In this document: positions 3,788 through 48,768 of the stretch, one piece after another | Layout: each line of letters begins with the position of its first letter | How positions within the stretch are numbered: position 1 is the first letter of the stretch | Origin: Candidatus Saccharimonadota bacterium | GTDB lineage: Bacteria; Patescibacteriota; Saccharimonadia; Saccharimonadales; UBA10212 | Direction of reading: 5' to 3' | NCBI GenBank assembly: GCA_016187125.1 | Contig: JACPKF010000001.1 | Location: 102,931-166,930 of the forward strand | Length of the DNA: 64,000 nt | The notes under the pieces: generated by a model | What the model was told of the DNA's origin: nothing | Databases searched by the model: none | What the model saw: the letters and a program-made list of their open reading frames with translations, nothing else | Made by a program: the position numbers and the translations under genes

Positions 3788-3822
3788 TTACCCGCCTAAA
3801 CTTTCTTTTAATATTCGATTTC

Positions 3823-3850
3823 ATTATAGCCCGTACACATTTTTATCCAA
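3823..3850 (-). promoter_or_regulatory. Putative sigma70-type promoter of radA
   Basis: Minus strand reads TTGGAT, 16 nt, TATAAT, about 35 nt upstream of the radA GTG. Confidence 0.4.
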
Positions 3851-3898
3851 GTTTCAGTGGGTTTAGAAAGACGGGGAAAGAAAGTTTGTGTGGGTGAA

Positions 3899-12057: not shown

Positions 12058-12219
12058 AAGTTCCTATCCGCTCACTCTAGGTAACTGCTCACTACCTCCA
12101 AAACGGAGGTGAAATTTAGCAGGTTGCGGTAGGGTTAAAATTCGCTCAATCTGTTACAGAAAACTCAATTTTACACTTGTCGTGTAAAATAACAGATGTC
12201 AGAAGGCAGTGAGCAGTTA

Positions 12220-12561
12220 CTACTCCAGTTCAACAAGCTCGATATTGTCGTAGTTCAGACCAGAAACTTCGGCGCCTAATATCCGGCAGTCACCACTCCA
12301 GTTATTGTTTTGGCACCAAACCCGAACGGCAAATTTTATTTGATTGAGCTTGCGAGGCGTGATGTGTTCAAGACCGCTGCCCTGCTCGGTTCCGGTTCGG
12401 TATTTTACCTCGACAAAGTAAATAATGTCGTCTTTGCGGACCACGACATCAATCTCGCAGACCTTAGTTTTCCAATTTTGGGCTAGAATTTTATAAGCGT
12501 TTTGAGCCAAATACCTTGCAACTGCAGCTTCTGCACTTTGACCAATTGCGGTAGTTTTCAT
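12220..12561 (-). CDS. yraN: YraN-family (UPF0102) endonuclease-like protein
   Basis: GQSAEAAVARYL..CEIDVVVRKDDIIYFVEVKYR pattern. Start set to the ATG at 12561 (MKTTAIGQ). The ORF-track extension to 12576 (GSNG) is encoded by the terminal repeat of the adjacent element. Confidence 0.85.
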   Translation of the reverse strand: MKTTAIGQSAEAAVARYLAQNAYKILAQNWKTKVCEIDVVVRKDDIIYFVEVKYRTGTEQGSGLEHITPRKLNQIKFAVRVWCQNNNWSGDCRILGAEVSGLNYDNIELVELE

Positions 12562-12666
12562 CCCGTTAGAACCCACTTACCTTCCAGCCCTTGGCAAACT
12601 ATTGAACACCTGTTTTTTACTTCAACGTACAAATTATTTCCGTAGGTCTTCTGGGTTCTAACGGGA
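12561..12666. mobile_element. MITE-like palindromic element, copy A (long form)
   Basis: Perfect 14-bp TIRs TCCCGTTAGAACCC (12561-12574) and GGGTTCTAACGGGA (12653-12666). Flanking direct TTCA (12557-12560 and 12667-12670). Lies exactly between the rnhB stop and the yraN start. Confidence 0.75.
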
Positions 12667-12667
12667 T

Positions 12668-13225
12668 TCATGCCGTAGTTCTCAACGGTTTAAAACTTAG
12701 ACGATGGATAGCCGCTAAAGGCCCAAAATGCTGCAAGGCTAGCTTATGCTGAGGAGTACAGTAGCCAGCGTGATTTTCGAAGCCGTAATTAGCATATTTT
12801 TTAGCCAACTCAGTCATAAAATGGTCGCGTCTGACTTTGGCATAAATCGAGGCCGCGGAGACTAGCGGCAGAAGGGCGTCGGCATCAATCAGACATTCAA
12901 AATTTTTATAAATTTTAGAAAGATAGTTTACCGGTCCATCAATAATAATTTTTTCATGACGCTTAACACCAAGATTACGCAGCGCCCGGGCAACACCTAG
13001 TTGCATGGCGCCTGTTAATCCCTGCTGATCTATTTCAGCTGCCAAAACCCAGCCTTCGCCAAACTTACATTGCCTAACCAGTAGTTTAAATAAACTTTCC
13101 CGCTGGGCGCGAGTCAACAATTTAGAATCCTTGACATTTTTGGGCAAACTACCATTCTGCCGAACGGCCGCAACCAGTAATGGTCCGGCGATACAGCCCC
13201 TACCGACTTCGTCTATCCCAATCAT
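12668..13225 (-). CDS. rnhB: Ribonuclease HII
   Basis: MIGIDEVGRGCIAGPL (DEVGRG catalytic motif) and conserved C-terminal RHS-like region. Stop is the TGA at 12668-12670. Confidence 0.93.
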   Translation of the reverse strand: MIGIDEVGRGCIAGPLLVAAVRQNGSLPKNVKDSKLLTRAQRESLFKLLVRQCKFGEGWVLAAEIDQQGLTGAMQLGVARALRNLGVKRHEKIIIDGPVNYLSKIYKNFECLIDADALLPLVSAASIYAKVRRDHFMTELAKKYANYGFENHAGYCTPQHKLALQHFGPLAAIHRLSFKPLRTTA

Positions 13226-21204: not shown

Positions 21205-21615
21205 TTAGGACTTGAAATATCTACTGAGATTTTTGGCGGCTAGCTTGGCTTGTTTGATGGCTTTACTTAGTTGCGGATCATCGGCTTCACCGGATTTTAC
21301 AGCTTTAAGTACGTGTAGGGCTTTATTTTGAGCGTCTTTAGCCCGCACCACTGTTTCGTTAAATTCAGCTCTGGCTTTAGAACCAAGCTCCAAAGTTTTG
21401 GTTTTGGCGGTTTTTATGAGCTCGCCTAGCTCGTCGCTAGCTTTTTGTAGTTGCTCCTGGGCGTCATCCTTGAGGTCCTCAGCTTTTTCGGCGATATCTT
21501 CCCGAGTTTCCTTACCACTTTTGGGCGCCGTTAATATTCCAGCTAGATAACCGCCAATTCCAGCTATAAGCGCCCCAATCGCCAGTTTTCGGCCTGTATG
21601 TTCGTCCTGTGTCAT
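21205..21615 (-). CDS. YtxH-domain membrane protein
   Basis: N-terminal TM helix followed by APKSGKETREDIAEKAEDLKDDAQEQL (YtxH-like helical repeats). Strong SD AGGAGG 8 nt upstream. Confidence 0.75.
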   Translation of the reverse strand: MTQDEHTGRKLAIGALIAGIGGYLAGILTAPKSGKETREDIAEKAEDLKDDAQEQLQKASDELGELIKTAKTKTLELGSKARAEFNETVVRAKDAQNKALHVLKAVKSGEADDPQLSKAIKQAKLAAKNLSRYFKS

Positions 21616-21747
21616 TTTACCCTCCTAAACTTTTCATTAAATTATGGTACATCTGCGTAAATAGCCTTTGCGTATTATATCTCATCATTGCCTTTTCCAT
21701 GAATGTCGACACATTAAAAAATGAAAAGTTTTGGCGGGTGAGACCCT

Positions 21748-25576: not shown

Positions 25577-25863
25577 AGGACTCGCCCCACCTTAAATTGG
25601 TTTTTTTCAACTGCCGGCGCGCCTTTGAGCAGATCGGCTGGCTTGGCCTGGTAGTCCTTGGTCTTATCCTCGCGCATAACATTTTTTAAGCCAGTGACTT
25701 GATAAGTCGGTTCTAGACCTTTAGTGTCAGCTTTGTCAAGCTGCTTGACGTAATCCAAGATCTCTGCCAGCTCGGTCCGAAAGCTTTCGATTTCTGCCTC
25801 GGTTAATTTCAGCCGGCTTAAGTGCGCCAATTTAAGTACGGCGTCGCGAGTCAATTTACCCAT
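25573..25863 (-). CDS. gatC: Asp/Glu-tRNA amidotransferase subunit C
   Basis: LTRDAVLKLAHLSRLKLTEAEIESF (GatC). Start set at the ATG at 25863 (MGKLTRD). The ORF-track extension to 25884 lies in the adjacent element. Confidence 0.88.
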   Translation of the reverse strand: MGKLTRDAVLKLAHLSRLKLTEAEIESFRTELAEILDYVKQLDKADTKGLEPTYQVTGLKNVMREDKTKDYQAKPADLLKGAPAVEKNQFKVGRVL

Positions 25864-25937
25864 CCCGATAGAAGTCCAATTCACTACCAGTAAATTGGCA
25901 GGTTTTATCTTTGATAAAAAACTTACTTCTAACGGGA
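25863..25937. mobile_element. MITE-like palindromic element, copy D (short form)
   Basis: Minus strand: ATGAA|TCCCGTTAGAAGTAAG ... GGACTTCTATCGGGA|TGGG. Termini match copy C (TCCCGTTAGAGGTAAG ... GGACTTCTAGCGGGA). The terminal A is the first base of the gatC ATG. Confidence 0.65.
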
Positions 25938-40097: not shown

Positions 40098-40202
40098 TCC
40101 CGTTAGACTCCACTTAACCTTTTGTTGCTGGTTAACGATTGATAAACAGTTTAGGTTTCAGTCGTCCTATAATTTCCGTGGGCGTTTTGGAGTCTAACGG
40201 GA
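40098..40202. mobile_element. MITE-like palindromic element, copy B (long form)
   Basis: TGAA|TCCCGTTAGACTCC (40098-40111) ... GGAGTCTAACGGGA (40189-40202)|TGAA. Interior ends resemble copy A (acttaacc..., ...tttccgtgggcgtttt). Confidence 0.75.
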
Positions 40203-47316: not shown

Positions 47317-48711
47317 ATGAATAAAGACCAGCTGTTGCTTAAGGAGGCTCAGAAAGTTTTAAAACAAAACGACCGTGGCGACTGGACGGTGCCGGCCGGC
47401 GATCTTTACCCACACCAGTGGCTTTGGGACAGTTGTTTTATTGCCATCGGGCTGCGTCATTTGGATATACAAAGGGCCCAAACAGAGCTAACTAGCCTGC
47501 TCCGCGGCCAGTGGAGCAACGGCATGCTGCCCAACATTATATTTTCAGATGGCCGCGAATTTCATCGTGACCGAGAGCTTTGGCGCAGCTATGTGAACCC
47601 TTATGCACCAGATAATGTTGCCACTAGCGGAATAACACAGCCGCCAATGCTGGCCGAGGCGGTCCTTCGAGTTGGGGAAAAACTAAAAAATCCACAACGT
47701 CGTAGCTGGTATCAAAGCGTGTTTGTTGAGCTAGTGCGTTACCATGAATGGCTTTACAATGAACGCGATCCCCACAAAGAAGGTTTAATCCTGCTTCTGC
47801 ATCCTTACGAATCGGGTTTAGACAATTCCCCTCCCTGGATAAGCGAGCTACGCAAACATAGCATGCCGTGGTGGGTGGTGGCTGTTGAACGTCTACGTCT
47901 TGACAGCTTTGTTAATTTAGTTAGACACGACACTCGCCATATACCGCCTGGGCAACGAATGAGCAATATTGAGGCTATGGCCTATTGGGCAGCTATAAGA
48001 CGACTCAGGCGCAAAGCTTATAACAGTGAGGCTCTACTGCCGCGCTCACTTTTTGCGGTACAGGACCTAGCCTTTAATTGCATTTTGATCCGAGCAAACA
48101 GCTGTCTTAAAGAGATTTCTCAAATCATCGGCCGAGAATTGCCAGCTGAATTAGTCCAAAAAATAGAGACTACCGAAAAAGCCTTGGAACAGCTTTGGGA
48201 TGATACCACTGGCCAGTACTATAGCCGTAGCTTCGTCAGCCATAAACTGATAGAAGAACCGACTGTGGCAACTTTATTACCACTCTACGCCGGGAAAATT
48301 TCTAAGGCGCGAGCCGAACATTTGGCTGGTTTACTCAAACGCCGTAAGTGGTTTGCAACCAACTGGCCGGTGCCTAGCGTTCCACTGTGTTCGTCATATT
48401 TTGATCCTATCAAATACTGGCAGGGCCCGACTTGGGTTAATACCAATTGGCTTATCATCGAGGGTTTGAAAAACTATGGCTTTGACCAAGAAGCTGCAGC
48501 CTTGCGTCAAAAGACTCTGGATTTGGTCGCTAAAAACGGGATGAATCCCGTTAGAGGTAAGAAATCAGCAATTTCTGCCGACTCGCATATAACGAACCGG
48601 ACTTCTAGCGGGATGAACGAATACTTTAACCCTATTAATGGCCACCCTGTTGGCGCTCCTAATTTCAGCTGGACCGCCGCCCTTACTATCGATCTACTTA
48701 AGCAGCCCTAA
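47317..48711 (+). CDS. GH63-family glycosidase (glucosylglycerate/mannosylglycerate hydrolase-like)
   Basis: LYPHQWLWDSCFIAIGL, GQWSNGMLPNIIF, TSGITQPPM, HPYESGLDNSPPW, YWQGPTWVNTNWL, NEYFNPINGHPVGAPNFSWTAA. From memory this closely parallels mycobacterial GgH. Confidence 0.8.
   Translation: MNKDQLLLKEAQKVLKQNDRGDWTVPAGDLYPHQWLWDSCFIAIGLRHLDIQRAQTELTSLLRGQWSNGMLPNIIFSDGREFHRDRELWRSYVNPYAPDNVATSGITQPPMLAEAVLRVGEKLKNPQRRSWYQSVFVELVRYHEWLYNERDPHKEGLILLLHPYESGLDNSPPWISELRKHSMPWWVVAVERLRLDSFVNLVRHDTRHIPPGQRMSNIEAMAYWAAIRRLRRKAYNSEALLPRSLFAVQDLAFNCILIRANSCLKEISQIIGRELPAELVQKIETTEKALEQLWDDTTGQYYSRSFVSHKLIEEPTVATLLPLYAGKISKARAEHLAGLLKRRKWFATNWPVPSVPLCSSYFDPIKYWQGPTWVNTNWLIIEGLKNYGFDQEAAALRQKTLDLVAKNGMNPVRGKKSAISADSHITNRTSSGMNEYFNPINGHPVGAPNFSWTAALTIDLLKQP
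48546..48613. mobile_element. MITE-like palindromic element, copy C (short form), in frame inside the GH63 CDS
   Basis: TGAA (48542-48545)|TCCCGTTAGAGGTAAG ... GGACTTCTAGCGGGA|TGAA (48614-48617). 68 bp plus a 4-bp duplication gives 72 bp, or 24 codons (PVRGKKSAISADSHITNRTSSGMN). Confidence 0.7.
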
Positions 48712-48728
48712 AAATACTCAATATTGCT

Positions 48729-48768
48729 TTATCCCGTTTTTTGTCCGATCGGACAAAAAACGGGATAA
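48729..48768. terminator. 40-bp perfect palindrome between the convergent GH63 and rmuC genes (bidirectional terminator candidate)
   Basis: TTATCCCGTTTTTTGTCCGA|TCGGACAAAAAACGGGATAA. Confidence 0.55.

Follow-up and report, generated by a model that had tools for sequence, protein, structure and literature searches.

We report a palindromic element of 106 nt lying between the RNase HII gene rnhB and the gene yraN in a 64,000-nt stretch of a Candidatus Saccharimonadota genome (contig JACPKF010000001.1; the whole stretch is hereafter the window). The rnhB stop and the yraN start once overlapped in an ATGA, and the element inserted there: the upstream copy of a duplicated TGAA keeps the rnhB stop, and the yraN ATG is rebuilt from the element's last A and the duplicated TG. 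The same termini, TCCCGTTAGA...TCTAACGGGA, bound elements of 65-121 nt in more than 200 genomes and metagenome contigs, overwhelmingly from Patescibacteria, the candidate phyla radiation (CPR). Across Patescibacteria, copy statistics show start-codon siting far above site availability, and show that the reading frame from the relic start codon is kept stop-free through the element. This avoidance of stop codons suggests a relay open reading frame (ORF) that preserves translational coupling. As a whole, the best explanation is a non-autonomous insertion resembling MITEs (miniature inverted-repeat transposable elements), sited on start codons, carrying a relay ORF and moved by an enzyme acting in trans; we regard this explanation as probable.

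An insertion in the rnhB/yraN overlap

The locus is composed of the following features.

12561..12666, minus strand (the strand of the flanking genes): copy 1 of the element, 106 nt, separating the stop of rnhB from the start of yraN
12653..12666, minus strand: gene-strand 5' terminal inverted repeat TCCCGTTAGAACCC, its first 10 nt being the family-wide terminus
12561..12574, minus strand: gene-strand 3' terminal inverted repeat GGGTTCTAACGGGA; the A at its end (12561) serves as the A of the rebuilt yraN ATG
12667..12670, minus strand: upstream target copy TGAA, holding the rnhB stop TGA (12670-12668)
12557..12560, minus strand: downstream target copy TGAA, whose TG completes the rebuilt yraN ATG (12561-12559)
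12558..12671, minus strand: relay ORF, 37 codons plus stop, MNPVRTQKTYGNNLYVEVKNRCSIVCQGLEGKWVLTG, from the relic ATG to the TGA at 12560-12558
12668..13225, minus strand: rnhB, RNase HII, 185 aa, PF01351; homologues are 185 aa
12220..12561, minus strand: yraN/UPF0102, 113 aa from the rebuilt ATG; homologues are 113 aa, with PF02021

A sequence-only reading of the window had described perfect 14-bp inverted repeats with a flanking TTCA duplication (TGAA on the gene strand), and both are seen in the sequence: TTCA stands on the plus strand at 12557-12560 and again at 12667-12670, and a repeat search extended the arms to 16 perfect nt (12560-12575 and 12652-12667). A12671 together with the upstream TGAA forms the relic ATG of the old ATGA overlap. 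The rnhB ORF terminates in the TGA of that same TGAA, and the insertion leaves the length of rnhB unchanged. Copy 1 folds as a hairpin of -39.2 kcal/mol (z = -4.8), and its relay ORF overlaps the rnhB stop with its ATG and the rebuilt yraN ATG with its TGA. Because no promoter-like or terminator-like site was found in or beside copy 1, co-transcription across it is plausible.

The same reading had placed the element in a former ATGA overlap, with both codons rebuilt, and the junctions of relatives bear this out. In three related genomes (L124/L125, L126 and L127/L128), representing the closest homologues on contigs long enough to read, with RnhB 68-73% identical to that of the window, rnhB and yraN (UPF0102) overlap by 4 nt, ATGA or GTGA. 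These junctions have no spacer and read ..CCAGTGAAAACTAC.., ..ACTATGAGGACC.. and ..AAGATGAAAACTAC... The window junction, ..GGCATGAA[106 nt]TGAAAACTACC.., equals the empty junction plus 106 nt and a second TGAA. Near-identical strains were not found for this junction, and the closest relatives, at the RnhB identities given, lack a spacer of ~110 nt. When an empty allele was sought in near-identical strains with a wobble-tolerant 40-mer of the precise-excision product, the metagenome collection gave 0 matches.

A second empty site comes from the window copy at 48546-48613 (copy 4 below), which lies in a glycoside-hydrolase gene. Fifteen homologues of the hydrolase are without the 24 residues of this copy, one of them being 87% identical, and the DNA of the closest homologue reads ..AGCGGCATGAACGAATAC.., uninterrupted. 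Copy 1 itself is present in two independent read-set assemblies of the same strain, which sequencing runs SRR12113430 and SRR12113422 contain. The contigs of both assemblies (L121 1370-1513 and L122 1120-1264) end no more than 4 bases past the element's last base, because the repeat breaks short-read assembly.

Several other features of the region were recorded. An alternative yraN start, GTG at 12576 inside the element (window 12562-12576), would give five extra residues (MGSNG), and gene callers will probably pick it. A 140-nt inverted repeat at 12081-12220 (GTAACTGCTCACTACCT / AGGCAGTGAGCAGTTAC) adjoins the studied locus, spanning the gap between the convergent pepN and yraN stops, and may be a bidirectional terminator or another small element. 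Relative L129 (1-786) has no yraN near rnhB, and an rve-type integrase gene adjoins its rplS. In the window, the ribosomal protein L19 gene (13366-13947) encodes a long, Lys/Glu/Ala-rich C-terminal tail of ~70 residues.

Start-codon siting across Patescibacteria

The family was collected by scanning 185,579 species-representative genomes and the JGI metagenome contigs with a pattern that demanded perfect termini, the 10-nt terminus being required. Among the matches listed, which make family totals lower bounds, at least 142 copies come from species-representative genomes (window included) and at least 128 from metagenome contigs, giving a set of 270 copies of 65-121 nt. Gene calls are simple ORF calls, and the taxonomy of metagenome-assembled genomes (MAGs) is as deposited.

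Copies beyond the window, which the sequence-only reading had anticipated, are thus numerous and nearly all patescibacterial. They occur in Saccharibacteria, Paceibacterota, Nomura-, Kaiser-, Wolfe-, Yanofsky- and Kerfeldbacteria, and further in Levyi-, Jorgensen-, Lipton-, Campbell-, Harrison- and Doudnabacteria. A few matches fell in Omnitrophota, WOR-3 or Planctomycetota MAGs, and a few evident chance matches in GC-rich genomes and non-CPR contigs (L115, L120, L130). Viral contigs gave 13 matches in 2.9 million, most without the family's flanks; with only 2-3 that look genuine, carriage by phages was rejected. Copy density is 4 in 64 kb in the window and reaches 3 per 8-kb locus elsewhere.

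Element lengths have modes near 66-81, 102-108 and 116-121 nt, with a few copies up to 171 nt. The ~105-bp and ~70-bp forms noted earlier in the window therefore stand, but two forms are an incomplete account of the family, whose commonest class is the third, at 116-121 nt. Interiors are very diverse: two copies from one locus usually differ as much as two from separate genomes, the one exception being a within-genome pair that is 98% identical. Tandem copies sharing one TGAA occur, as do nested copies (L036 4620-4789, L047 3211-3381, L085 2088-2232, L111 1965-2134 and L082 1446-1640). Some nested copies have 5-nt duplications at non-ATG targets (CGAAG, CGCAG), and the outer pair in L082 is flanked by (G)TTTAC.

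The family is apparently undescribed. The comparison with Rfam proposed for it gave no gathering-score match in Rfam 15 over the whole window, and at E values up to 10 copy 1 and one long-form copy returned only noise. Open-access literature text held nothing on these termini, on MITEs in CPR or on start codons as MITE sites. A 2024 review covering MITEs of prokaryotes (PMC10969869) makes no mention of CPR MITEs or start-codon MITEs.

Within the window, a degenerate pattern, TCCCGNTAGA-(45-101)-TCTANCGGGA, recovered exactly the four copies named earlier, against 0 expected in 100 shuffles. The three besides copy 1 are as follows.

25863..25937, minus strand: copy 2, 75 nt, on the gatC start codon; TGAA upstream, TGGG downstream
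40098..40202, plus strand: copy 3, 105 nt, on the start codon of a 231-aa ORF; TGAA on both sides
48546..48613, plus strand: copy 4, 68 nt, inside a trehalase-family glycoside-hydrolase ORF (47317-48711, 464 aa); TGAA on both sides

All four fold as long hairpins (z about -5), and the relic-start frame is open in all four. They had been described as lying next to (A)TGAA throughout, which is true of copy 2 on one side only; its TGGG flank lies inside the ATGGGT of gatC. The relic-frame ORF of copy 2 has 28 codons and stops at a TAA just within gatC. That of copy 3, upstream of what we take to be a GlpQ-like phosphodiesterase, has 34 codons and stops at the right-repeat TAA, 4 nt before the ATG. 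Copies 1 and 3 belong to the same 105-nt subfamily and have opposite internal orientations, so that the subfamily occurs both ways. Copy 4 does adjoin ATGAA as described, but it is in frame inside the hydrolase ORF (68+4 = 72 nt) rather than merely adjoining it, and is read as 24 extra residues of the enzyme. No degenerate copies were found in the window at up to 2 mismatches per arm.

Other repeats and ORFs of the window were also recorded. Just past the hydrolase stop, 48729-48768 is a perfect 20+20-nt palindrome (TTATCCCGTTTTTTGTCCGA|TCGGACAAAAAACGGGATAA) whose outer 8-mer, ATCCCGTT/AACGGGAT, is identical to the family terminus together with a single flanking base. This could reflect a collapsed family member, or a coincidence. 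A second inverted-repeat family, ACCC[G/T]CCTAAACTTT...AAAGTTT..GG[C/T]GGGT, occurs at 3790-3895 and 21619-21739. The minus-strand 3' arm of the latter reads AGGAGGGT-AAA-ATG, and its stem would sequester the ribosome-binding site of the YtxH-like gene at 21205..21615. Between pheT and pheS, the ORF at 45754-46197 matches PF05635 ('23S rRNA intervening sequence protein', bAvd-like).

The flanking duplication proved reproducible across the family. An exact 4-nt duplication flanks 91/142 copies of the first sample and 72/128 of the second (163/270, where ~1 is expected by chance), and 16 more copies have a 3-nt duplication. TGAA (89), TGAG (21) and TGGA (18) are the duplicated 4-mers seen most; rarer ones, e.g. 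TTGA, TAAA, TGCG, TGCA and CTGA, are also repeated on both sides, and therefore the repeat is copied from the target and not carried by the element. Among TG-initial duplications (n = 76), 95% continue with two purines, compared with 39% of unoccupied gene starts at the same loci (AA 20%); the preference for TGRR is therefore a genuine one at the sequence level. Immediately before the upstream copy of the duplication stands A in 81 cases, G in 7, C in 2 and T in 1, which looks like the usage of ATG, GTG and TTG start codons rather than a need for A. Between -20 and +12, occupied starts show no longer target motif.

The ATG made up of the terminal A of the element and the flanking TG begins an ORF of 60 codons or more in 111/142 copies of the first sample and 89/128 of the second (200/270). 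Of the unoccupied TGRR sites at the same loci, 339 fall on start codons, 2,460 fall in spacers and 25,008 lie within genes (ORF calls, 89% coding density). Start codons thus make up 1.2% of all unoccupied TGRR sites and 12% of those outside coding sequence, but ~75% of the copies are found on them. More than half of these start-codon copies stand at tight operon junctions, 26 of them in exact 4-nt ATGA overlaps. Intragenic copies read through in frame (window copy 4, L006, L055, L093 and L098, all 68 or 71 nt) number at least 5/142, a count that covers the first sample.

How this bias arose can be pictured in outline. The element would insert by staggered cuts made by an enzyme supplied in trans. 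Start-codon copies might then accumulate because insertion there would be harmless, while intragenic copies would be purged unless in frame; spacer copies could be lost by any deletion, and start-codon copies only by precise loss. The bias may stem from integration or from later selection. Decay of spacer copies was rejected as its source on the evidence of the window, which has no degenerate copies within the mismatch limit given above, and loss by deletion can still be envisaged.

A proposed relay frame and the terminal structure

We define the relay frame as the frame that runs from the relic start codon, ATG AAT CCC GTT AGA..., and compared it with five control frames per copy. It is stop-free through the interior in 36/72 copies of the first sample and 39/61 of the second, while control frames are open in 8-19 each; overall it is open in 56% of copies vs ~17% for control frames. 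For elements of at least 97 nt, the relay frame is open in 53/101 and control frames in 59/505 (p = 3e-18). The resulting ORF is the only one in the element and has 25-42 codons.

Element length determines where an open relay frame ends. At lengths of 0 mod 3 it ends at the right-repeat TAA (TC-TAA-CGGG-ATG), 4 nt before the rebuilt start, and at lengths of 1 mod 3 with a TGA-purine duplication its stop is a TGA that shares bases with the rebuilt ATG. Lengths of 2 mod 3, at which the relay frame would run into the gene as a fusion, are depleted (21/133). Openness is higher the more the gene depends on one upstream: 81% at exact ATGA overlaps, 66% at distances of -1 to 10 nt, 50% farther away and 33% where there is no upstream ORF. 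At exact ATGA overlaps the relay frame is open in 21/26 copies, compared with 53/104 elsewhere (p = 0.007).

Termination-reinitiation coupling needs overlaps or very short gaps, according to PMC6728339 and PMC10666635. At copy 1, ribosomes finishing rnhB could start again at the relic ATG and read the 37 codons of the relay ORF. Translation of this ORF would melt a hairpin that otherwise buries the yraN ATG, and ribosomes would then stop at the TGA overlapping the rebuilt ATG and re-initiate there. The original coupling would thereby be kept in two steps.

Other routes to expression of the downstream gene were considered. A Shine-Dalgarno core precedes only 9/72 rebuilt ATGs, and such cores were rare at these genes before insertion too (6/72). 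A hairpin that brings a Shine-Dalgarno site close to the ATG was rejected on these counts. Boxes resembling a -10 element are symmetric (90 vs 91), and perfect TATAAT is weakly commoner in the gene direction (23 vs 10); an outward promoter was rejected given the symmetry and the lack of such a box in copy 1.

The copies share a common plan of conserved 10-nt termini, a 13-bp terminal stem and a variable interior. Stem positions 11-13 vary, with A:T, G:C, C:G and T:A all seen at each, yet they are complementary in 91-94% of the 270 copies. Beyond position 13, in-register pairing ends at an asymmetric bulge. The long form has, at one end only, a local stem-loop or long-range pairing followed by YCT-NNN and the terminus, and this subterminal stem-loop shows compensatory changes in 6/7 pairs. 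The asymmetric end faces the gene in 40/43 informative copies of the first sample and 36/36 of the second (76:3 in total). In about six long copies away from gene starts it faces the TGRR-downstream side (6/6). No covariation between duplication type and stem positions 11-13 is apparent by eye.

Alternative readings and comparison with known systems

Several observations weigh against the explanation that we favour. No ORF bounded by inverted repeats was found in ~1.7 Mb of flanking DNA, so that an autonomous partner with the same ends was not recovered there, and Pfam at permissive thresholds revealed no transposase in the window, as the sequence-only reading had stated. The near-fixed orientation of the long form and the covariation at positions 11-13 are unlike a classical inverted-repeat element of the DDE type. 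Recent bursts appear to be rare, because copies within one genome are mostly as divergent inside as copies from different genomes. The relay itself is deduced from stop-codon avoidance in one frame; an early stop interrupts that frame in half of the copies at start codons, which are kept nonetheless, and control frames are also likelier to be open at tight junctions (17% vs 8%), so that the trend with junction type is partly compositional or confounded. Finally, ~6% of copies (16/270) have RCYTG (ACTTG, ACCTG, GCCTG...) immediately against their left end and TGRR on the right, repeat only TG and leave no relic ATG.

Copies with the RCYTG flank include L022, L033, L037, L038, L063, L077, L078, L082, L094, L143, L157, L243 and L260. 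In 15/16 of this class the rebuilt ATG opens an ORF of between 49 and 750 codons; boxes resembling TATAAT are frequent 10-20 nt upstream.

A covarying stem, a fixed orientation, termini common to the superphylum and the lack of a partner together fit poorly with a textbook DDE element, and the conserved termini and fixed orientation point to a widely shared enzyme. It is possible, and we put it forward tentatively, that the element truly homes to start codons: an asymmetric, structure-recognising machinery, possibly a conserved CPR host enzyme, would set the hairpin one way on the TG of an NTG codon, and the insertion would be translationally transparent through the rebuilt ATG and the relay ORF. 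If so, this would be the first mobile element with the start codon itself as its niche, able to colonise even junctions where genes overlap, in bacterial genomes of the greatest compactness.

The relay frame might instead be a by-product, for example of tolerance inside genes as with Rickettsia palindromic elements, and the displaced gene could be translated through initiation on an AT-rich leader, from a transcript that starts within the element, or by looping out of the hairpin. In-frame intragenic copies such as copy 4, L006, L055, L093 and L098 do exist, early stops occur in half of the start-codon copies, perfect TATAAT is somewhat commoner in the gene direction, and genes at these sites seldom had a Shine-Dalgarno core even before insertion; all of this agrees with a by-product. 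Against it, the looser -10-like boxes are symmetric, openness peaks at genes that had relied on an upstream stop (81% at ATGA overlaps), lengths that would fuse the relay frame to the gene are depleted and not favoured, and the second sample is enriched only in the used frame and not in the mirror frame. We therefore hold this account to be doubtful.

A second alternative concerns the enzyme. A structure-specific, direction-setting enzyme could recognise the hairpin or cruciform instead of cutting and pasting in the DDE manner, and start-codon targeting would then be a property of the enzyme and not of selection. Such an enzyme would possibly be host-encoded and shared across CPR, e.g. an HUH/Y1 protein as for REP/RAYT, or a recombinase as on attC. 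The stem positions that vary while staying paired, the compensatory subterminal hairpin and the one-way orientation of the long form, also off gene starts, all speak for it, as do termini that many CPR phyla have in common despite unrelated interiors, the lack of an inverted-repeat-bounded partner in the ~1.7 Mb, and a ~6-fold enrichment of start codons over other TGRR sites outside coding sequence. However, the flanks duplicate whatever 4-mer was hit (TTGA, TAAA, TGCG, CTGA), unlike in IS200/IS605, REP/RAYT or core exchange. True duplication of arbitrary 4-mers speaks for staggered cuts and repair as with transposases. Occupied starts also have no extended target motif, and no candidate enzyme was found. 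On balance this alternative is unlikely.

Two specific candidates were rejected during the analysis of mobility. That the element brings along its own target tetranucleotide, as IS200/IS605 would, or its own recombination core is contradicted by unusual 4-mers duplicated on both sides. Unpaired termini, and pairs of termini 122-4000 nt apart with matching flanks, were examined as an autonomous partner and proved to be nested, tandem or neighbouring small copies.

A vertically inherited cis-regulatory leader RNA, riboswitch-like or an attenuator, would account for the position immediately 5' of start codons, the strong hairpin and the covarying stem. It is very improbable: the element is present or absent at orthologous sites with target duplication, copies lie within ORFs and also occur as tandem and nested arrangements, the genes downstream have unrelated functions, interiors are unrelated, and Rfam gave no match even at E = 10. 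A chance palindrome or assembly artefact is practically negligible, since short termini and a few chance-like GC-rich non-CPR matches (L115, L120, L130) are outweighed by window shuffles with 0 matches vs 8 observed, by the same copy in independent assemblies and by one junction rule across hundreds of copies.

CPR genomes are among the smallest and densest and are usually described as repeat-poor. Occupancy of start codons and overlaps across the superphylum shows selfish DNA persisting where neutral space is almost absent. If the relay works as proposed, the element would be a natural portable module of translational coupling, and a 70-120-nt hairpin would be tolerable between coupled genes provided that an ORF crosses it and stops at, or beside, the start codon that follows. 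For annotation, gene callers will extend or misplace starts at copies (e.g. the yraN GTG) and add 24-residue insertions to proteins, and assemblers break contigs at copies.

Among known systems, Correia elements (CREE) of Neisseria are ~100-150-nt non-coding elements with inverted repeats, a short target duplication and long and short forms; they are co-transcribed with their neighbours and fold into a long mRNA hairpin. Our element resembles them in size, inverted repeats, short duplication, long and short forms and hairpin. Correia elements duplicate TA, have 26-bp repeats of another sequence and lie near genes in one genus, whereas the present element duplicates 4 nt (TGRR), has a 10-nt conserved terminus and ranges over a superphylum. 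We know of no Correia element placed exactly on a start codon, rebuilding one or carrying a relay ORF.

The attC sites of integrons are imperfect palindromes of 57-141 nt whose structure is conserved above sequence, with asymmetric bulges and a fixed orientation. Their short terminal motifs, RYYYAAC / GTTRRRY, recall TCTAAC / GTTAGA of our element. However, attC sites have RYYYAAC (R'') as the 5' and GTTRRRY (R') as the 3' motif, and here the order is reversed, GTTAGA being 5' and TCTAAC 3'; the boundary lies outside the stem at the duplicated 4-mer and not at G|TT, and copies are single and dispersed at housekeeping gene starts with no cassette arrays. Elements derived from IS200/IS605 and REP/RAYT systems likewise have hairpin ends and a fixed orientation by a tetranucleotide, and REPs also lack an inverted-repeat-bounded partner; they differ in having no target duplication and a constant target, whereas the present element duplicates diverse 4-mers on both sides.

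Coupling at ATGA and TGATG overlaps provides another comparison. The relay ORF of copy 1 begins and finishes in an ATGA overlap, and other copies place a TAA 4 nt before the ATG, both being geometries reported to support coupling (PMC6728339, PMC10666635). Known coupling joins two cellular genes directly, while here the mobile element's own ORF would act as the relay.

The general features of bacterial MITEs are reviewed in PMC10969869. The present element is shorter than ~300 nt, has no transposase coding capacity, carries inverted repeats, shows a 4-nt duplication with empty sites and occurs in many copies. The label MITE-like given to it earlier is thus reasonable, but the defining autonomous insertion sequence with the same termini was sought in the ~1.7 Mb of loci and in the window and was not found. 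Rickettsia palindromic elements are ~100-150 nt long, inserted in frame in protein genes and translated (PMC10969869), as are window copy 4 and at least four other copies here. They differ in being mostly intragenic, Rickettsia-specific and conserved in peptide; the present element has a small minority of intragenic copies, its typical site is a start codon, and conservation of its peptide is confined to the parts encoded by the repeats (MNPVR... and ...LTG or ...F), interior peptides being unrelated. In its workings the element resembles a MITE, and a minority of its copies resemble Rickettsia palindromic elements.

On the features tested, the element is neither a Correia element, a Rickettsia palindromic element, an IS200/IS605 derivative, an attC site nor a member of an Rfam family. 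What is new is its niche and its adaptation to it: siting at start codons and ATGA overlaps, both codons rebuilt, a relay frame, a near-fixed orientation and a CPR-wide range.

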